Part shown: piece after piece, positions 9,060 through 60,558 of the stretch
Numbering within the stretch: position 1 is the stretch's first letter
How the letters are laid out: each line of letters starts with the position of its first letter
IMG/VR virus record: IMGVR_UViG_3300032236_001191
Span: 36,558 to 100,557 of that record
Origin: a virus
Length of the DNA stretch: 64,000 bases
Direction: 5' to 3' (one strand)
Position numbers and translations under genes: made by a program
The notes under the pieces: model-generated
What the model was told of the DNA's origin: nothing
Seen by the model: only the letters and a program-made list of their open reading frames with translations
Database searches by the model: none

Positions 9060-10813
9060 TGGCCGTAGATTACTACTACACTCAATATCTTCAGCAGGCA
9101 GTAAATCAAACATATGAGAGTATTGATATTCCCAATGTTTCTGTATCTTGGTCTGACTTTTTAGTTAATACAGGCGGAGTGGCTGGCACAAATCAAGCAG
9201 GAAGCTATACTGGAAATTACAACCTTTTAGGTTGGGTTATAAAGGTATACAAAAAAGAAAGCCCTAGTTCTCCTGCTGTTTTAATGACCTCAGATGATGT
9301 TACCGTACGCTTTGGTGCTCCAGACGGTCCTTTAGCCCAATACTACAAAGGCGTTAAGATTACTAATGGGGGTAAAGCTTTTTATATTGAAGTTAACTAT
9401 GACAATGTACTAGCTGCAAAAAAACCTTTAGTACTTAAGCCTGTAATGGCAGTAACTCTAAAGTCTAACGGTAACCACGTATCTTATAGCAAATCCGCTT
9501 CTGGTATAGATCTGCAAAGCGTTACTTTTACCCAAAGTCAAACTTATCCACCTATACCTACAGCGTTAATTGCTGCTGTAAGCCCGGGTTATGACCCAGG
9601 ATTAAATAATGGAAACACATCTAATATTCATTATAATTTTGCTACCAAGCAGTATGTAGGCATTCAAATGGTTACAGACAGCAAAACAAATACAACGTCT
9701 TATTATGCACTTTATTACGACCCAAAAACTAAAAAACAAGTTGGGGATAAAGTATACCTTGGAAAAGAAAAAGCAAACTCTAGGGGTAAAGTTTGGGCAA
9801 AAGGACAAGCTCTTTTAATTGATGCTATTGATAGCCAAAATAAGACAAGTGCTGTTGGAGACTCTACAAAACGCTATCATGATAGTGTAGTCCCAGATCA
9901 ACCTGCAGCTACCTCTCCTGCCCCACCGTACCCTACAGACTCAAATAGATGGAATCCTCCTACCCACCTATACACTAAAAACTTTTCAACAGGGTTGTTT
10001 TTAAATAGTTTAATTAAAAATGATAAACAACTTTTAGATAGTACCCTTAATAATAGCGAGATTCTTCCAGGTATGGAATTTCTTTCTACAAACTATAGCG
10101 TTCCTAGCACCCTATACAGCATTAATACTAATCTTTTTGAACCTAGTTTAGGTCATATTGGTAATATGTACCAAGATGCTGCTACTGCAAAAGCTATTAA
10201 CCAAGACCACCCAGATAAACAATGGGGATTTAGGTTTATGTATAATCCTAATCAAATTGGGTATAGCAATACTGCGGATAATAGTGTTGACTATACACTT
10301 GGTCAGGCAGATCCAGCTAACCTATTAGCTGGCAATATGACGGTTAATTTTCAACTGTATATTAATAGAATTATCGATATGTCATATCTTCGGGGTACTC
10401 AAGCCCCTGGACAAATGGGGTATGCAAGACAGCTTACCCAAGATGAAAAAGACGGGTTAACGTACCGTGGTACTGAATATGACCTAGAATTTTTATACCG
10501 AGTTCTTGGTGGAGATCCAATTAAAAATAACGCAACAATTGGTGCCGCAGGAAACTTAGGAGTAAGCGCAGATATTGGGCTTATTAAAGCTGTTCCTATA
10601 TGGTTGTCTATTAACCCTGTGTATAAACTTTTTGGTGCTGTAGCTAGTATGTCCGTAAACCATGTTTTATTTACTATGGATATGGTACCTATGTTAACTA
10701 CTGTAGACATTACCTTTAACCGTTTTCCTGCCTTATTTAACCTTGCGGATAGCGATCCAAAGTCTGATTCACGTCAAGCCTTTAAAAAGTTTATTACCGG
10801 AAAGGCGCAGTAG
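9059..10813 (+). CDS. Baseplate / tail-tube initiator-like structural protein
   Basis: C-terminal 'GFRFMYNP...V.H.LF...MVP....VDITF' tube-like domain; follows the tape measure gene. Confidence 0.6.
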   Translation: MAVDYYYTQYLQQAVNQTYESIDIPNVSVSWSDFLVNTGGVAGTNQAGSYTGNYNLLGWVIKVYKKESPSSPAVLMTSDDVTVRFGAPDGPLAQYYKGVKITNGGKAFYIEVNYDNVLAAKKPLVLKPVMAVTLKSNGNHVSYSKSASGIDLQSVTFTQSQTYPPIPTALIAAVSPGYDPGLNNGNTSNIHYNFATKQYVGIQMVTDSKTNTTSYYALYYDPKTKKQVGDKVYLGKEKANSRGKVWAKGQALLIDAIDSQNKTSAVGDSTKRYHDSVVPDQPAATSPAPPYPTDSNRWNPPTHLYTKNFSTGLFLNSLIKNDKQLLDSTLNNSEILPGMEFLSTNYSVPSTLYSINTNLFEPSLGHIGNMYQDAATAKAINQDHPDKQWGFRFMYNPNQIGYSNTADNSVDYTLGQADPANLLAGNMTVNFQLYINRIIDMSYLRGTQAPGQMGYARQLTQDEKDGLTYRGTEYDLEFLYRVLGGDPIKNNATIGAAGNLGVSADIGLIKAVPIWLSINPVYKLFGAVASMSVNHVLFTMDMVPMLTTVDITFNRFPALFNLADSDPKSDSRQAFKKFITGKAQ

Positions 10814-31504: not shown

Positions 31505-32565
31505 TGGCAATTAACTCAGAAGCACTAAAGATTGTAGCTAACATCAACAAGAAGGTTGGTGCAGGCACCGTAGTCCTTGCTAGTCAAGTTCGACTTCCTG
31601 AACGTATTACTACCGGCTCACTTACCCTAGATGTAGTTCTAGGTGGGGGTTGGCCTATGAACCACTGGGTAGAACTAGTTGGTGAGGCATCACATGGTAA
31701 GACCGCTATCGCTTTGCGAACTATTGGTGCTAACCAGCAAAAGAACCCAGACTTTACAGCTGTGTGGATTGCTGCAGAAGCTTTTGATGCACAGTACGCA
31801 GAGCTTTGCGGGGTAGATACTGATCGAGTTATTTTAGTTGAGACAAATAGTATGGAGGATGCATTCGATGCAGTCATTCAATTCATGGAGAGCAAGGCTG
31901 TTGACATGGTTGTTGTTGATTCCCTTCCTGCCTTGGTTCCTAGCGCAGAAGATGAAAAGCACATGGAAGAATTCACTGTGGGTCGTGGCGCACTTATTAC
32001 CAATAAGTTCTTTAGAAAAGTGGCGTCAGCTACCAAACGAGACCTCGTTGAAGCAGAACGACCAGTACTGGGATTAATGATTAATCAGTACCGTATGAAG
32101 ATTGGCGTAATGCATGGAGATCCACGCACTACACCCGGTGGTCTTGGTAAGGACTATGCCTATAGTATTCGTGCTGAAGTAAAGCGTGACGAATGGCTTG
32201 AGGTAGGTACCGGACAGGAAAAGCGACGTGTAGGTCAAACTATCCGTGTTCGTACAATTAAGAATAAGACTTTCCCGCCACAGCAGACAGCGTACCTAGA
32301 TTTCTACTTTTCTGAGGGTGGTCCAATCAATGCTGGTAGTTATGATACCGGTAAGGAGATTGTAGCTCTTGGAATTCTAAACGGGATCATTGAACGCCGT
32401 GGTGGCTGGATGTACTATGGCGATAGAAAGTGGCAGGGTGCACCAGCGTTGATCGAGTCCCTTCGTGAAGAGATTGAACTAAGCGAAGAGATCAGCAAGG
32501 CTGTTATGGACACTCTTAAGAGTGCACCAATCCTAGCGTTAGCTGATGACTCTGATGAAGAGTGA
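31504..32565 (+). CDS. recA: RecA-like recombinase
   Basis: TTGSL.LD..LGG, GEASHGKT, VVDSL.AL, INQ.R.KIGVM.GDP.TTPGG. Confidence 0.95.
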   Translation: MAINSEALKIVANINKKVGAGTVVLASQVRLPERITTGSLTLDVVLGGGWPMNHWVELVGEASHGKTAIALRTIGANQQKNPDFTAVWIAAEAFDAQYAELCGVDTDRVILVETNSMEDAFDAVIQFMESKAVDMVVVDSLPALVPSAEDEKHMEEFTVGRGALITNKFFRKVASATKRDLVEAERPVLGLMINQYRMKIGVMHGDPRTTPGGLGKDYAYSIRAEVKRDEWLEVGTGQEKRRVGQTIRVRTIKNKTFPPQQTAYLDFYFSEGGPINAGSYDTGKEIVALGILNGIIERRGGWMYYGDRKWQGAPALIESLREEIELSEEISKAVMDTLKSAPILALADDSDEE

Positions 32566-36541: not shown

Positions 36542-36778
36542 ATGCTAGAAACTTTGTATGAAGAAGCAAAGCAACAGAATAGTTTTAACATTAACTATTG
36601 CGTTGTAGGCCAGTGGGCCGTTAACTTATCCGATCAAGATAAAATTGCATTTGATCAATCCTTAAATGATGATGACTTCTCTTCGAGGAGTCTATTTACG
36701 CTGTATAAAAACGCAGGCGCAACATTTGGACTTACTTCACTACGTATACACAGAAACGGAGAATGCGGATGTCGCTAA
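36542..36778 (+). CDS. Hypothetical protein
   Basis: ORF track; ends H....C.C. Confidence 0.6.
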   Translation: MLETLYEEAKQQNSFNINYCVVGQWAVNLSDQDKIAFDQSLNDDDFSSRSLFTLYKNAGATFGLTSLRIHRNGECGCR

Positions 36779-54563: not shown

Positions 54564-56477
54564 TTATCTGCCACGCTTTTTAATTGCTCCGACTACTACC
54601 TTACGAGCAAACGGTAGAAGATCACCTGCGGATCTAACACGGCCATAGATTTCAGCACCGTGACGCAAGTCATCTTCAGTTTGTCCATGACGTTCGATCC
54701 ACTCTAGATCTCGGTCTTCAGCGATAAGGGTTAGCACAGTGAGGATGCCACGCTTGTTAATGCGTTCGATTAGCTCATCGTTCTTCTCCTTATTGAATAC
54801 GCCATCAGTGATAACGAATAGCATCTTATTCTTCTTACGAGATGCCATGAGTAACTGCTCAGCAACCAGCAGGGCTGGATACGGCTCAGTGCCACCATTA
54901 CCATAGATAAACTTGTAGTCCGTCTTACCGGCTTTCTCTGTACGTTTGTAGGCCACTTCAGGCTTATCATCAAACGCATAGACTGTAACCGGTGCATCAA
55001 TGTGCTCTAGCGCACGTTTGATAGTCCAGCATGCAATAGATGCTTTTCTATCATTCTGTCCACTAGACATTGAGCCTGAACGATCGATAAGGATAACTGC
55101 TTCGATATCGCAGCCATCATCACCTTCGTCCCAGCGATCGAAAGCGTTGTCAATCTCACATCCACGAATAACTCGTTGAACATTGAGACGACCACTAGGT
55201 GTTTCCTTACTCCATGTAGGCTCTGCATCATCACGCAGACGTTGCAGTTCTTTGGCGAACCTACGGTACGAGACAATGGCTTCCTGCGGTACAGCAGTGC
55301 TGTCGAACTTGCCTCGCTTGATAGTATCTTCATGCTTACCATCGCCACCAACAATAACTTTCTGCTTGGCTTTGATGTCAGCTTGAACATCCTTACGATT
55401 AAGAACATTCTCAATCGTATCGTCCAATAGCTTAGGTATACCACCTACGCTATCCACATGGCCTACACCTGCAGTAGGCGATGCTTGTGAGTTAACTGCC
55501 TCATCACGCATTTCTATTGCATCTTGTACGCTTTGCGGTACAAATACAACAGGCTGACCTTCTCCATCACCAGGCTTACTACTCTCTGCCGTACTTTCTT
55601 CGGCTTGGTCTGATGGATCGGATGTGCTTGATGTTTGTGTTGGTTGAGGCTTAGGTCTAGGAACATATACTGGCTCCTTGACTCCCATGCTTTTAGCACG
55701 ATTAGCATCTTTCTCCTGCGCTTTGCCTGGTTCAGGTCGACCCTTAGATACTGGTTCACGTCCTCCACAGGAACTAGGACCACCATCAAAGGTACTATCT
55801 ATACCCATAGGCTTTAGCACTTCAGTGTTCAATCGTCTAACAAGTTCTATTGCTCGTCCATAGTCCTTAGGAAAATGAAGAGTACGATACTCATCAACGA
55901 TTTCTATGATTGCAGGGATAAGATCAGGGAATGCGAACGCATCTCTGAATGCTTGTCGTACTTCAACCGGTAGATATCTACGGCCACGGATACATAGATA
56001 GTTGCCTGGCATAGACTCTCTGTCTTCACCAAGCCACCTAGCTACTGTGGCTGTTAGGAATGGAGCAACTGAGGGAAACCGTGCTACGAACAGGGTTTCG
56101 ATACGTTGATCCTCGAGTATGTTAAACGACTGCATCAGATCTTCTTCAAGAACTTTCTTGACTAGGTCTGTGCCTTTGCGAGGCGTATACAGGTGATGAC
56201 ATAGCTCGTGATAGTTGAGGCCAGTGACTTGGGTTAGAGTTTCTAAGTCCATGTCATTGATCTCTTCTGCATTGATAGTAATAGACGCACCGTCAGACCA
56301 TGCTGGCGCTGGACCATTACTTGCTACGTGTACTAGTACTGGATCACCAGTTAGTACACGGTCTGCTTGCTCGTATACTCGGCACAAGGCGTTAAGACGA
56401 ATCGAACGCTCTTGCGCCTCTTCAGCCCTAGCTTCTTGATGCCAACCGTATACATCATCCATCTCATCTTGAAACAT
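54564..56477 (-). CDS. VWA-domain protein with N-terminal HExxH motif (CobT-like partner of an AAA+ ATPase)
   Basis: MIDAS DRSGSM, GGT, ITDG; N-terminal HELCH and N.LED.RIE. Confidence 0.88.
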   Translation of the reverse strand: MFQDEMDDVYGWHQEARAEEAQERSIRLNALCRVYEQADRVLTGDPVLVHVASNGPAPAWSDGASITINAEEINDMDLETLTQVTGLNYHELCHHLYTPRKGTDLVKKVLEEDLMQSFNILEDQRIETLFVARFPSVAPFLTATVARWLGEDRESMPGNYLCIRGRRYLPVEVRQAFRDAFAFPDLIPAIIEIVDEYRTLHFPKDYGRAIELVRRLNTEVLKPMGIDSTFDGGPSSCGGREPVSKGRPEPGKAQEKDANRAKSMGVKEPVYVPRPKPQPTQTSSTSDPSDQAEESTAESSKPGDGEGQPVVFVPQSVQDAIEMRDEAVNSQASPTAGVGHVDSVGGIPKLLDDTIENVLNRKDVQADIKAKQKVIVGGDGKHEDTIKRGKFDSTAVPQEAIVSYRRFAKELQRLRDDAEPTWSKETPSGRLNVQRVIRGCEIDNAFDRWDEGDDGCDIEAVILIDRSGSMSSGQNDRKASIACWTIKRALEHIDAPVTVYAFDDKPEVAYKRTEKAGKTDYKFIYGNGGTEPYPALLVAEQLLMASRKKNKMLFVITDGVFNKEKNDELIERINKRGILTVLTLIAEDRDLEWIERHGQTEDDLRHGAEIYGRVRSAGDLLPFARKVVVGAIKKRGR

Positions 56478-56486
56478 GAGTCTCCT

Positions 56487-57914
56487 TTACACTATGCCGT
56501 GTGTTTGAGCAAATTGGCCTGCCCAAGCTGTAAACTCTTCATCTACAGATTTAACTTCTGGTTCCTTCTCTGTTTCCACAGGGATTTCGATACCGAAGTC
56601 AGTCTTGATGTTGTGTTCATATGTTTGGAATATGAGACGTACGCTGGCAGCTTCATCTGACCCAAAGTGAGCAATGAAGTTCTCAACTGCGAACTCATAT
56701 CCCAATGCATCTACGAAGTGTGTGAACTCCTGTAGCATATTGGTAGAGATTGGTGTTTCATACTGACCCTTGGCTGCCTCATTACGAAGCATCTGGGCTA
56801 GTGCTAACAACGACTTAGAGTTAACTAGCTTAGCCTCAACCTTATCGTCATAATCCCAAGGGATCTGAATGTCGAAACGGTTACGGAACGCAAAGTTAAG
56901 CGGCGTTGTACCAATGTAGTCTGGATTCATAGTCGCAAAGATTGTGAGGTCTTTGTGTGCTTCGATAGTTTCACCGTGGTGGTCAAGCAATGTGATCATA
57001 CGGCGACCATCTAGCAATGAATACAGAACAGTGTAGATTTTCGGACTGATGAAGTTAACCTCGTCGAGAAGGAGAACACCACCATTACGAACTACGTCAG
57101 TAACTGGGCCATCGATCCACGCAAATGAACCTGAGCCATCAGCTACGAACTTACCAGTCATTTGGCTTGGCTCCATTGAAGCGTTACCTGAGACTGTTGC
57201 CATGCGTAGTCCTCGTTCAGCAGCCCACGCTTCAACAGACGTAGTCTTACCGGGACCGGTTGGGCCGTAGATAAGTACGTTGATGTTGTTGGCACGAGCG
57301 TGATCGAAGATACTGAAGTCTTCTTGACCCCAGATGCTACGATGGATATATCGCTTAGCTAGCTCAATGCGTGGCACTGATGCTAGGTTCGCTGCAATTA
57401 CCGGACCAGCTCCAACGGATGCTGTTACAGGTTCGGCGATTGTTTGTGTTGGCTGTACCACTTGTACTGGTGAAGCCAATGGAACAGTCGTGCCAGCTGC
57501 ACGACGATTGTCAATTACATATTGCTCCAAGTTATCATCTCCATTGCTTACTTGTTCGTAGAGTTCACAGACAGCATCAACAAATGATGTTGTGTCTGTG
57601 TTTGGACTTGCTTTGGTATGCGCTTGACATGCCTTGGTACCAAGAACTGGAGAATAACCTTTCTCCGTCATAGCCCGTTCATCGGCTGCTGTAACATAGA
57701 TAGCAACAGGTGTACGAGTGAGTTCTTCGTTTGTTCCAATCAACCCAGTAAGCCCATCAAGATCCGTTTCTTCCCACTTGTTATGTGGGCCTTTGGATCC
57801 ATCGGTATTACGTGAGTAGATACGTACGTTACCATCATGCGGTGTGATAAGAACCTGACGGCGCTTAGCCCCCATGGTTGGTTCGTACGATTCTGTGAAC
57901 ACGGCGATATCCAT
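56487..57914 (-). CDS. MoxR / CbbQ / CobS-type AAA+ ATPase
   Basis: GPTGPGKT, LLLDEVN, ATMNP.Y.GT..LN.AF.NRF. Confidence 0.9.
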   Translation of the reverse strand: MDIAVFTESYEPTMGAKRRQVLITPHDGNVRIYSRNTDGSKGPHNKWEETDLDGLTGLIGTNEELTRTPVAIYVTAADERAMTEKGYSPVLGTKACQAHTKASPNTDTTSFVDAVCELYEQVSNGDDNLEQYVIDNRRAAGTTVPLASPVQVVQPTQTIAEPVTASVGAGPVIAANLASVPRIELAKRYIHRSIWGQEDFSIFDHARANNINVLIYGPTGPGKTTSVEAWAAERGLRMATVSGNASMEPSQMTGKFVADGSGSFAWIDGPVTDVVRNGGVLLLDEVNFISPKIYTVLYSLLDGRRMITLLDHHGETIEAHKDLTIFATMNPDYIGTTPLNFAFRNRFDIQIPWDYDDKVEAKLVNSKSLLALAQMLRNEAAKGQYETPISTNMLQEFTHFVDALGYEFAVENFIAHFGSDEAASVRLIFQTYEHNIKTDFGIEIPVETEKEPEVKSVDEEFTAWAGQFAQTHGIV

Positions 57915-57956: not shown

Positions 57957-58232
57957 CTAGAAACCTAGTTCATCTTCATCAGGGTTGAGTGTGAGTTCAG
58001 TCACTGCTCTAGCCCTGCTGTCTAGCACAGCAGCAAAAGTAAATGCTGCTTGTCGTTCTTTAGCCCAGTCAATAATGAGCTCGTGAAGGATGTCATGTCC
58101 CTCAGCAAGATTGATTACATTACGGAACTGTTCTTGTGCATAGTTAAAGAACTCTTCACGTTCTTCTTCTGGTATTTCTGCGAGAAAGTCAATATCTGCA
58201 TTCTCGTTCTCATCATCACATGCATTGCACAT
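57957..58232 (-). CDS. Acidic hypothetical protein
   Basis: GGAG RBS before ATG 58232. Confidence 0.55.
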   Translation of the reverse strand: MCNACDDENENADIDFLAEIPEEEREEFFNYAQEQFRNVINLAEGHDILHELIIDWAKERQAAFTFAAVLDSRARAVTELTLNPDEDELGF

Positions 58233-58263
58233 GAGGTACTCCATTCTTGTTAGGGAATTAAAT

Positions 58264-58298
58264 AGCCGGGAGCACACCTATAAGGCATGCTCCCGGCT
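58264..58298 (-). terminator. Strong hairpin directly downstream of the ncRNA candidate
   Basis: AGCCGGGAGCA...TGCTCCCGGCT followed by ATTT on the - strand. Confidence 0.65.
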
Positions 58299-58301
58299 TA
58301 T

Positions 58302-58520
58302 GTGCTCCAAGTAACTTACTCAGGAAGGATGTAAGAACCACAGAGGTTAGTCTATTGCGTTCAGCTCACTGTTCAGCGCACCACACTCGTTGCCTATGTC
58401 GGCATTGGAAGCACTTAAGTCTTACCAGGTTGAGTCAGGTTTAAACCTACTTAGAATGTTGCGTTCGGCCTCAAGTTCCCTAAGGGGATACAACGTGCTG
58501 TCTCTCGTTACTTATTGCAC
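58302..58520 (-). ncRNA. Structured ncRNA candidate A (about 220 nt)
   Basis: 5' and 3' ends pair (GUGC..UAAGUAAC / GUUACUUG..GCAC); several internal hairpins and crossing pairings; no ORF. Confidence 0.6.
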
Positions 58521-58548
58521 TATGGTCATAGTTAGACTATAACCAATC

Positions 58549-59043
58549 TTATACTGTTGCATTCTGGCGTTCAAACCATGCTGCATTTGATGCTTTACCA
58601 GATTCAATTGCCATCACCAAGTAGATTGGTCCAGGCATTCCTGACTTGATTGCTTTTGCCATAGCCCAACCTAGTGGGCGTGTATTTTCTGGGGTGTTAC
58701 GCATGAGCGCTTTCAAAGCGACATCACGCATCTCACATACAATTGCAACTGTCGCAGTGAGTTCACTGAATACAGTCAGGGATTTAGGAGCCATACTAGG
58801 CACGGCTCGTAACATACGAGTCATGTTTGCTAGTGCACCTTCGTGATTGCTTGTGTTGGACACGTACTCTAACAGCTTACCAATAACAGCATCACGATAT
58901 GAAGCATCGTTCCACATTAGCTCTGCTAAGTTTTCTGGAACCATGCCATTGTATAATGCGTAGGCCGCTTGCTGCGGATTCTCTACTGGGTTTACAGTTT
59001 GATGTGTACTTGCCCCATCATATTCAACCGATAGGTTGGACAT
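58549..59043 (-). CDS. DUF4192-like helical protein
   Basis: 'RDAV...', 'A..AL.......L...A.....GMP' pattern resembling actinobacterial DUF4192. Confidence 0.45.
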   Translation of the reverse strand: MSNLSVEYDGASTHQTVNPVENPQQAAYALYNGMVPENLAELMWNDASYRDAVIGKLLEYVSNTSNHEGALANMTRMLRAVPSMAPKSLTVFSELTATVAIVCEMRDVALKALMRNTPENTRPLGWAMAKAIKSGMPGPIYLVMAIESGKASNAAWFERQNATV

Positions 59044-59743: not shown

Positions 59744-60036
59744 TAGTTAGCCTCCACACTTTCAAACAATCCCGCATAGCAGATATCAAAACTCTGCTCA
59801 CGAGCTTGTTCCAGTTCACGTGGTTTATCGAACTCTTCATCAAACCATACGATTGATATAGGGTTACGTCTAGCACGCTTAGGGGATATAGCAAACAAGG
59901 CTTGACCAAGACCATCGATAACTCCGGTATGGTAAGCCCTGCTGTGTTGATCAGTGAGCTCGTTAAGGTTGAGTTCCTCTTCGAGCATCATTGTTTCTAT
60001 CTTGTCAGCCAATTGACGGCGCTTTCGCTTTCGCAT
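59743..60036 (-). CDS. Hypothetical protein
   Basis: AAGGA RBS before ATG 60036. Confidence 0.55.
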   Translation of the reverse strand: MRKRKRRQLADKIETMMLEEELNLNELTDQHSRAYHTGVIDGLGQALFAISPKRARRNPISIVWFDEEFDKPRELEQAREQSFDICYAGLFESVEAN

Positions 60037-60397
60037 GCCGTACTTCCTTTCTTGTTGAACCAACGGGTTGTACCACGCTGATTGGGCTGGTTGTAAGGTC
60101 AGACTCTACAATATACGTACGATGACCTCGCATCTTAGGTGTTGTACCACCTTGGATACTATGTGCATCATCACGTAGGATTGCGTCATCTAGACATTGT
60201 TGCTTTACATTGCAATTAGCACAGACCTTGAGAGCTGCTCGCTCTTTAGCTCTGCGATGCGTTCTATTACTATCCTCTGCGGTGTAATAGAAATCATTTA
60301 CGTCTAGACCATTGCAGTTTGCTTGGTCTTGCCACGCACCTAATGCTGCCATATCCCATACCACTGGTAGTGGGACATAGTCGCTTGGCATATCCAT
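60005..60397 (-). CDS. whiB: Divergent WhiB family protein
   Basis: WQ.QA.C.....FY...A.KVC.NC.V...CL..A.......SIQGG.T...R; GGAGG RBS. Confidence 0.8.
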   Translation of the reverse strand: MDMPSDYVPLPVVWDMAALGAWQDQANCNGLDVNDFYYTAEDSNRTHRRAKERAALKVCANCNVKQQCLDDAILRDDAHSIQGGTTPKMRGHRTYIVESDLTTSPISVVQPVGSTRKEVRHAKAKAPSIG

Positions 60398-60558
60398 TGT
60401 GACCTCCGTAATGCGGCGCCGATTGTTTGTGTTGGTTGGCACCAGCGTGCCTATACAGACTTTGACATCTGTATAGGCGAGTTGATTTATATGCCGCTAA
60501 CTAAGCGGCCTTACGAGGGAGGTTTTCGTTCAGGAGAACTCCCGCCATCCGTGTAAGA

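Follow-up and report, generated by a model that had tools for sequence, protein, structure and literature searches.

A large covarying RNA family, absent from Rfam, in the gap before a MoxR-VWA operon of WhiB-encoding freshwater phages, and its likely member in one complete viral genome

The window analysed here is a stretch of 64,000 nt (positions 36,558 to 100,557) of the complete virus record IMGVR_UViG_3300032236_001191, which is 100,557 bp long, and a gap of 317 nt in this window (58232-58548) carries a candidate structured RNA on the minus strand. We argue that this RNA, whose structured core lies at 58307-58515, is a real member of a covarying and syntenic family of phage RNAs that is absent from Rfam, a reading that rests on sequence comparison and to which we give a probability of about 0.9. 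The family comprises about 46 distinct RNA sequences in four subgroups, all located in a syntenic gap of WhiB-encoding freshwater phages of ~100 kb; group A counts 29 distinct sequences after profile iteration, group B 13 and group C two. In the window, the same strand carries in this order an open reading frame (ORF) of ~160 aa, the RNA, a terminator hairpin, a Shine-Dalgarno sequence (SD), a small ORF whose product starts with MC.AC, a MoxR ATPase and a VWA protein. A first-pass annotation of the sequence had left the choice between a phage variant or mimic of a large host RNA and a new class, and it is the new class that the relatives bear out.

Relatives were gathered through the ATPase gene as anchor, which gave 35 loci from IMG/VR viral contigs and 72 loci from metagenomes, and nearly all of them have a non-coding gap of 200-500 nt at the same place. 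A blastn search of the RNA region against 50,697 phage records returned no match, and nhmmer with the window RNA as a single query gave only weak 3' matches among the relatives, a profile and a covariance model (CM) being required to connect them. The 164-aa ORF upstream of the RNA, when used as search anchor, brought up zero relatives in viral contigs. Across the subgroups the RNA interior has changed far more rapidly than the ATPase, which keeps 70-82% identity, and at distant loci (ATPase 55-64% identical) the gap measures 200-440 nt and has a strong hairpin at its end, immediately ahead of the SD.

The architecture of the family starts with a long-range helix, P1, that joins the 5' and 3' ends, followed by the long-range helices P2 and P3, with conserved asymmetric internal loops in which AAGAA stands opposite GUAA and UC opposite CCUUC; the AAGAA/GUAA loop may be a loop-E-like motif. 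Past P3 come two highly conserved junction strands of ~22 nt each and then a variable apical hairpin domain. RNAalifold recovered the closing stem, an inner GCAC/GUGC stem and the terminator from group A, with many compensatory changes, and four long-range helices (P3, P6, P7, P4) as well as the apical P5 were added by hand from the variable regions. P3 occurs, for example, as GGCAAGA/UCUUGUC, CCUAAA/UUUAGG or GCGA/UUGC and P4 likewise as CGUG/CACG, AAUG/CAUU, AGUCAC/GUGGCU or AGUAGC/GUUGCU; P6 (GAUCC/GGUUC) has a persistent central mismatch, P7 is a helix of three base pairs (CGG/CCG, replaced by CUG/CAG in locus L099) and P5 is a long irregular apical hairpin. The covariance model built from group A, hereafter R1, is an unbranched rod with no branch point, and the consensus of the group A alignments holds neither a multi-way junction nor a covariation-supported pseudoknot.

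An independent MAFFT alignment (A3, 25 sequences) was used to count covariation, with slid partners and 500 shuffles as controls. Standard pairs occupy 85.9% of the cells against 32-38% with slid partners, two-sided changes affect 36 of the 50 pairs, double-change cells number 228 against 32-45 in the controls, and the covariation score of 0.478, against ~0.09, was reached by none of the 500 shuffles. Over all five measures, the observed value was attained by no shuffle on three and by at most two of the 500 on the two others, and the whole exercise had the same outcome on 32 CM-aligned sequences. P1 covaries at nine of its nine pairs in the relatives, and group B has independently a closing stem of 15 bp in which 13 pairs covary. 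More than 35 positions are invariant, mostly in unpaired junctions, and the stems vary freely; moreover, G-U pairs are frequent in the helices, from which it follows that the RNA strand is the gene strand. The first-pass annotation had pointed to covarying homologues as a way of checking its proposal, and strong helix covariation is indeed what the related phages display.

How firmly the window copy itself belongs to this family is a question of its own. R1 matches it over the full length of the model (cmsearch, 58307-58515 on the minus strand, 20.8 bits), at coordinates nearly identical to those of the first-pass annotation, with E values of 0.0021 over 366 kb, 0.0015 over 255 kb and 6.9e-6 in a local search with the filters off, while an nhmmer profile finds the 3' part with E = 5.5e-7. 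The same model also detects, at the syntenic place, members of group C (31.7 and 27.1 bits) and of group B (21.0 and 12.2 bits). The window copy satisfies eight of nine pairs in P1, three of four in P2, four of six in P3 and four of four in P6; it retains P1, P2 (CAG/CUG), P3 (UGUA/UACA), the GAGAGA/AGUAA loop, UCCUUC and both central strands. The apical P4/P5 domain of group A is not present, its place being taken by an insert of ~85-110 nt with other hairpins, and groups B and C differ in this domain as well. Among the relatives, the window copy resembles only L052 and L074, and those in part. A second search with R1 in the window's own genome gave no match at E <= 1; this was ascribed to the pre-filter and is not counted as evidence.

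The case for the window copy has its weak points. The score of 20.8 bits is low in comparison with group A members, for which ranges of 103-203 and 140-200 bits were obtained; the interior of the window copy has no close homologues and is thereby beyond a covariation check; and folding energy is no help, as the 219-nt core has a minimum free energy (MFE) of -54.5 kcal/mol against a mean of -55.5 for dinucleotide shuffles (z = +0.24), with 116 of 200 shuffles folding equally well. One might then suppose that no selected RNA exists in the window copy at all, and that two ordinary hairpins, one of them a terminator, flank a decayed spacer with chance complementarity. The low score and the core z value suit such a spacer, and by our own estimate a random sequence of 219 nt would contain several 8-bp helices if G-U pairs are allowed. 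We nevertheless consider it very improbable, for the full-length CM match falls exactly at the syntenic place and P1, P2, P3 and both junction motifs occur in order; groups B and C are equally divergent and yet have covarying stems of their own; and the length of the gap is kept, and stops interrupt all six reading frames. A protein-coding reading was rejected on the grounds of these six-frame stops and of homologue lengths that differ by non-multiples of three.

It is worth dwelling on what folding can and cannot say here. The opposite strand of the core gives z = -0.26, and the whole 317-nt gap reaches z = -3.95 because of its two flanking hairpins; group A is likewise unremarkable (z = -0.86), so that the evidence for the RNA is comparative and not thermodynamic. 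In the Boltzmann ensemble of the window copy only three helices are near-certain, namely the outer stem (probability 1.0), P1 (0.99) and UGCC/GGCA (0.94), the remaining nested helices having probabilities of 0.14-0.53, and nested folding cannot score two crossing pairings. Every complementary segment listed by the first-pass annotation is present at its place on the minus strand: the closing stem, the stems AGCAC/GUGCU and GUUG/CAAC, the hairpins UCCC/GGGA, UAGGUU/AACCUG, UGCC/GGCA, AACC/GGUU and CUUAC/GUAAG, and the segments of the crossing pairs UUGAG/CUCAA and UAAGU/ACUUA. As a list, these stems do no better than chance; that there is a folded multi-stem RNA of ~210 nt stands by virtue of the relatives. 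Counterparts in related phages exist for the closing stem, for the frame of P2 and P3, for the junction motifs and for the hairpins on either flank, and it is these parts of the window copy that rise above chance. The 3' part is paired differently by the two descriptions, as CAG/CUG plus UGUA/UACA in the family model and as the CUUAC/GUAAG and AACC/GGUU hairpins in the first-pass annotation. Forcing the P1-P2-P3 frame costs 0.8 kcal/mol over the MFE, and the addition of P6 7 kcal/mol; with a cost of merely 0.8 kcal/mol for the frame, energy does not settle the inner fold. These costs make it probable that the window copy is more branched than group A.

Along the minus strand, the window copy opens with an outer extension of the closing stem, GUGC at 58517-58520, that pairs with GCAC at 58302-58305 (probability 1.0), the latter being read from the sequence within GGAGCAC; this extension has no equivalent in the relatives and is specific to the window copy. 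P1 follows, its 5' strand UAAGUAAC (58507-58514) pairing with its 3' strand GUUACUUG (58308-58315), as supported by both the CM alignment and the pair probability of 0.99. According to the CM alignment, the GAGAGA junction (AAGAA in the family) and the P2 5' strand CAG occupy 58498-58506, and the P3 5' strand UGUA lies at 58489-58492, opposite UACA at 58330-58333. The 3' frame (58316-58333) consists of UACA (P3'), UCCUUC (family CCUUC), CUG (P2') and AGUAA (family GUAA). Of the central motifs, GAACUUGAGGCCGAACGCAACA (58457-58478) is aligned by the CM to the family's most conserved strand, GACCCAAGCCGGAAAGCAAUA, and UGAGCUGAACGCAAUAGACUAA (58347-58368) to the family strand UGAGC.AGCCCGUAGU.GCUAA, the two together thus corresponding to the central strands GACCCAAGCCGGAAAGCAAUA and UGAGC..CCCGUAGU.GCUAA. 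A second motif, GACUCAACCUGGUAAGACUUAAG (58414-58436), resembles both the GACCCAAGCCGGAAAGCAAUA strand and the L052 copy, according to the MAFFT alignment A1 and a comparison with L052, and from the alignments it is ambiguous whether GAACUUGAGGCCGAACGCAACA or GACUCAACCUGGUAAGACUUAAG is the true orthologue of GACCCAAGCCGGAAAGCAAUA, as is the interior alignment generally.

Both flanks of the core had been described correctly by the first-pass annotation, which saw a palindrome upstream and a terminator-like hairpin downstream; they lie at 58545-58523 and 58298-58264. The downstream hairpin resembles an intrinsic terminator: it starts 9 nt past P1 and has a stem of 16 bp (10 G-C) followed by the U-rich tail AUUUAAUU, the whole element with its tail AUUUAAUUCC spanning 58254-58298 on the minus strand; all relatives have a counterpart, with a covarying stem. 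The upstream hairpin (58523-58545, minus strand) has 10 bp, reads UGGUUAUAGU-CUA-ACUAUGACCA and starts 3 nt past the stop codon of the 164-aa ORF. A homologue of this hairpin (UUUGG...CCAAAUAG), with a covarying stem, occurs in group B phages. A promoter reading of the upstream palindrome (TTGGTT-N16-CATAGT) was rejected, since the covarying stem of the group B equivalent varies in length and the hexamer spacing is accordingly not kept. A further promoter reading, at the DNA level, of the conserved GCTAAGGTT was also rejected, because its positions covary with an upstream strand (P6); it counts against this reading too that transcription initiated at this site would run into the terminator all the same. 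A palindrome, ACTATGACCATAGT (58519-58532), overlaps the upstream hairpin in its 3' arm, and its motif ACTATGNNCATAGT occurs in the window as 16 strand-matches, or ~8 sites, where chance would give 1.65. These sites lie at 32153, 32414, 35612, 41454, 41842, 58519 and 62942, with weaker ones at 10673 and 43819; one abuts the RNA and one is located upstream of a further RNA candidate of the first-pass annotation ('RNA C'). The palindrome might serve as an operator or be a hairpin that recurs.

Known families were searched for as well. Rfam 15 at gathering scores had no match in the whole window; with the threshold relaxed to E <= 10, the region gave junk hairpin matches only; the scans of seven relatives and a group A copy gave microRNA-like matches to the terminator hairpin only; and a tRNA and tmRNA search found none. 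The models proposed for checking by the first-pass annotation (raiA, Ms1 and other large RNAs) thus yielded no family match to the window copy or to the relatives. The loose resemblance to the raiA motif noted by the first-pass annotation found no support: a search of the full 100.6-kb genome with RF03072, whose gathering score is 101.3 bits, gave nothing up to E = 10, and raiA is missing from the permissive scans of the window copy and group A. A phage variant or mimic of raiA would agree with the similar size (~200 nt) and with a closing P1 that has a terminator stem after it, and the inferred host phylum, Actinobacteria, does carry raiA (PMC5737381, PMC12968392); yet neither the multi-way junctions of raiA nor, on the evidence of covariation, its pseudoknots (PMC12968392) occur in the consensus of the phage family, and we regard such kinship as hardly credible.

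The notion of a host RNA mimicked by a phage fared no better. An 18-nt core motif matched 70 times in 185,579 species genomes, which equals our chance estimate, and R1 confirmed none of these matches, with the limit that a scan for the exact motif misses diverged copies. In viral contigs the motif occurs in 13 stretches, eight of which lie on contigs already returned by the ATPase search; on the five others, which are on new contigs, the best R1 score was 14 bits (E = 0.22, partial), taken as chance. All true RNA copies from the motif scan therefore sit on ATPase-bearing contigs, and in the data searched the RNA family appears from sequence to be confined to phages.

What might such an RNA do? 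The reading that we prefer, tentatively and at somewhat less than even odds, is that it works in cis as an intercistronic element governing read-through of the adjacent terminator. The RNA would be co-transcribed with the upstream genes, RNA and terminator would act together as an intercistronic control point, and a factor bound at the conserved loops would set the amount of transcription that passes the terminator into the MoxR-VWA operon. This factor could be RNA polymerase itself, as for the put and EAR RNAs, or a phage or host protein, and the terminated RNA of ~250 nt would accumulate as a by-product. In every subgroup the terminator follows P1 by 3-9 nt, the SD and the small ORF come 15-25 nt further, and the order RNA, terminator, SD, operon is kept despite the fast divergence of the RNA interior. 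At group A loci of the L005 type P1 begins ~19 nt past the upstream stop codon and the start codon lies ~25 nt past the terminator, so that there is no room for a separate promoter on either side and one transcript must stop at the hairpin or read through it. The distant loci, at which the RNA can no longer be recognised but which keep the long gap and the strong hairpin before the SD, likewise favour an intercistronic control module.

Several observations speak against cis control. An ensemble analysis of 28 sequences found no conserved pairing that competes with the terminator; a classical terminator/antiterminator switch is thus unsupported, and any regulation would need to target the polymerase or to rely on a bound factor. 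Cultured actinophages with the ATPase-VWA pair (Gordonia phage GMA6, Brevibacterium phage Cantare, and FlyingTortilla) have no R1 match, hence the operon does not need the RNA. Finally, the dense invariant unpaired nucleotides and the ends sealed by P1 beside the terminator would suit a stand-alone RNA equally well.

On the 3' side of P1, the adjoining stretch GGAGCAC (58302-58308) has its complement, GUGCUCC, in the terminator's 3' arm (58269-58275, minus strand), and from the sequence a possible antiterminator existing only in the window copy can be drawn; this pairing is absent from relatives such as L099 and L002. It is also an argument for a small-molecule riboswitch, in which an aptamer would control the terminator after it. 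The succession of an aptamer-like fold, a terminator, an SD and an operon and the highly conserved junction nucleotides would suit a riboswitch, but the GGAGCAC pairing is not shared by relatives and the ensemble offers no conserved terminator competitor, the consensus is an unbranched rod and not a junction-based pocket, no riboswitch family matches, and nothing in the downstream genes hints at a metabolite, the 'CobT-like' label resting on the VWA domain. A riboswitch is in our opinion quite improbable. A cobalamin riboswitch in particular, suggested by the 'CobS/CobT-like' labels, was rejected as no model matches and the neighbour is a peptidase-VWA protein.

The main rival of the cis reading is a stable, stand-alone RNA or ribonucleoprotein scaffold that acts in trans. 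Such an RNA would either be freed from the upstream transcript or arise from a promoter of its own, with its 3' end at the terminator; protection would come from the pairing of its two ends, and a protein of the phage or of the host would attach to the conserved internal loops. We see this as possible but doubtful. It agrees with P1 sealing the 5' and 3' ends beside a strong terminator, with hairpins on both flanks in the window copy and group B, with more than 35 invariant positions lying mostly in unpaired junctions and with the lack of a conserved terminator competitor, and it has a precedent in raiA, which was first taken for a cis element and acts in trans (PMC12968392). Against it, change between subgroups is faster in the RNA interior than in the proteins encoded nearby, which is unusual for an RNA with a conserved partner; position and orientation are fixed immediately upstream of one operon; many group A loci have no room for a promoter of the RNA's own; and domain searches of the neighbours reveal no recognisable RNA-binding domain.

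A further possibility is that the RNA would be a 6S-like decoy that binds the host RNA polymerase holoenzyme and shifts transcription to phage promoters, possibly together with the phage WhiB. The family is a ~195-nt unbranched rod with paired ends and two adjacent central internal loops of ~10 x 10 nt, a short invariant AGC/GCU hairpin is possible in the 3' strand of the loop, and a WhiB gene lies 1.7 kb upstream. A decoy of this kind is improbable all the same, given that neither the window copy nor group A is hit by an Rfam 6S or Ms1 model, even with the threshold at E <= 10, that the covarying 3-bp CGG/CCG helix and P6 split the would-be bubble, and that the likeness is one of general shape only. 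The boldest reading would make of this family the first RNA-based transcription control device described for Actinobacteria phages, a large and fast-diversifying RNA acting on the host polymerase. Such an RNA would either let the polymerase resist the adjacent terminator, as put and EAR do, or sequester it like 6S, its specificity being set by subgroup-specific junction sequences; we deem this rather unlikely.

The genes around the RNA are all on the minus strand. The 164-aa ORF upstream (58549-59043), recorded in the ORF list, has no known family in domain searches, and the WhiB gene occupies 60005-60442. Past the terminator, the SD GGAG (58242-58239) precedes an acidic ORF of 91 aa starting with MCNAC (ATG at 58232-58230; SD and ORF together 57957-58242), for which Pfam and PHROG searches gave no match; the MC.AC start of this small acidic ORF is conserved across all subgroups examined. 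Next come the MoxR/CobS-like AAA+ ATPase that served as anchor (56487-57914, Pfam AAA_5) and a 637-aa protein (54564-56477) with HExxH near its N-terminus and a C-terminal VWA/MIDAS domain (Pfam VWA_2). In the latter, H90, E91 and H94 of HExxH are invariant, the N-terminal domain is helical and the closest fold matches are NorD and the Rea1 MIDAS, so that the 'CobT-like' labels on its homologues look misleading. The gene pair fits the MoxR and peptidase-VWA chaperone pair described in jumbo phages (PMC7824862). The nearest cultured relatives of the ATPase are from Gordonia and Brevibacterium phages (45-50% identity); together with the WhiB gene, a marker used for freshwater actinophages (PMC10914622), these sequence similarities point to a phage of freshwater Actinobacteria. 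The VWA neighbour also raised the question of a Y RNA bound by a Ro protein, a reading that was rejected: this protein has Pfam VWA_2 only and no TROVE domain, its HExxH is invariant, its MIDAS is of the NorD/Rea1 type and not that of Ro60, and a PDB profile search of it on this question found nothing.

The gaps of the related phages contain further elements. Directly past the stop of the upstream ORF and before the RNA, group A loci and L035 have a conserved C/A-rich motif, CCAACACAAACA, which in L035 is present though the 440-nt gap has no R1 match. Some group A phages have between this motif and the RNA an extra conserved element of ~85 nt (..CUUGACCGGGCCUGCGACCACAAUCUGGCAAUCCAGCGUCCCCUCC..), located upstream of P1 in L004 (3345-3420), L026 (3355-3430), L073, L099 and L045; L009, L053 and L054 have a different insert, of ~140 nt. 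At the group C loci (L019, 3720-3885; L022, 3750-4000) the RNA is followed by a second conserved non-coding block, GAGCGAGCGUGGRUUCCCUGA..., with no ATG-started ORF called before the ATPase; this block could represent a further RNA or a small gene missed by annotation. The shorter gap of L082 (1017-1216, ATPase 60% identical) includes GACCCCAAGGGAAGCUAAGA and GUUCCAAG, which are reminiscent of the junction motifs, and may from its sequence be a miniature homologue. The related phage L028 has a tRNA gene (1235-1308, 69 bits) ~2.7 kb upstream of the ATPase.

Freshwater WhiB actinophages prey on some of the most abundant bacteria of lakes, and little is known of their gene regulation. RNA data on whiB phages are available from Rotsee Lake (PMC10914622). 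The family described here is large for a phage RNA and combines unusually clear covariation with a constant position in the genome and several dozen natural variants, which makes it a ready-made subject for structure probing, cryo-electron microscopy and termination assays. If the RNA acts on the polymerase or the terminator, RNA-mediated antitermination would be extended to Actinobacteria; as a trans-acting ribonucleoprotein it would join raiA, OLE and ROOL among the large RNAs of still-unknown function. There is also a lesson of method, as folding energy alone would dismiss the window copy and only its relatives reveal that it is real.

Compared with known systems, the family shares with 6S and Ms1 RNAs a similar length, the unbranched rod, the paired ends and a central open region, and differs from them in that this region is split by covarying short helices and no model matches. 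Like the Y RNAs of Ro60/Rsr, it has its ends paired in a long stem, conserved internal loops and a VWA protein encoded nearby; unlike Ro60, this neighbour lacks TROVE and has HExxH and a NorD/Rea1-like MIDAS. The put RNAs of phage HK022 sit in phage early operons and the Bacillus EAR RNA between operon genes, their conserved nucleotides lying in loops and bulges; both are structured in-transcript RNAs upstream of terminators, as is the phage RNA, which nevertheless has no similarity to them in sequence or structure, is 2-3 times larger and has its terminator immediately adjacent and not distal. The 6S leader of phage lambda is a 194-nt transcript from pR' that ends at tR' and is read through by Q. 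Both systems place a phage operon right behind a leader of ~200 nt that stops at a strong terminator, but in lambda control belongs to a DNA-binding antiterminator and a promoter-proximal pause, whereas in the present family it is the RNA fold that is under selection. With raiA the phage RNA has in common a length of ~200 nt, a closing P1 with a possible terminator stem after it, many conserved unpaired nucleotides and the association with Actinobacteria; raiA, however, is chromosomal and is built of P1 and P3-P6 around four-way and three-way junctions with the two pseudoknots PK1 and PK2 (PMC12968392), in contrast to an unbranched rod found in phages only in the data searched and without any CM similarity to it. 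A parallel in kind of evidence is the catalogue of structured RNAs drawn from IMG/VR (PMC10690425), which has the same source and likewise relies on covariation in phage intergenic regions; its candidates measure 29-151 nt with a mean of 67 nt, and it is from this published size range that the present family is set apart.

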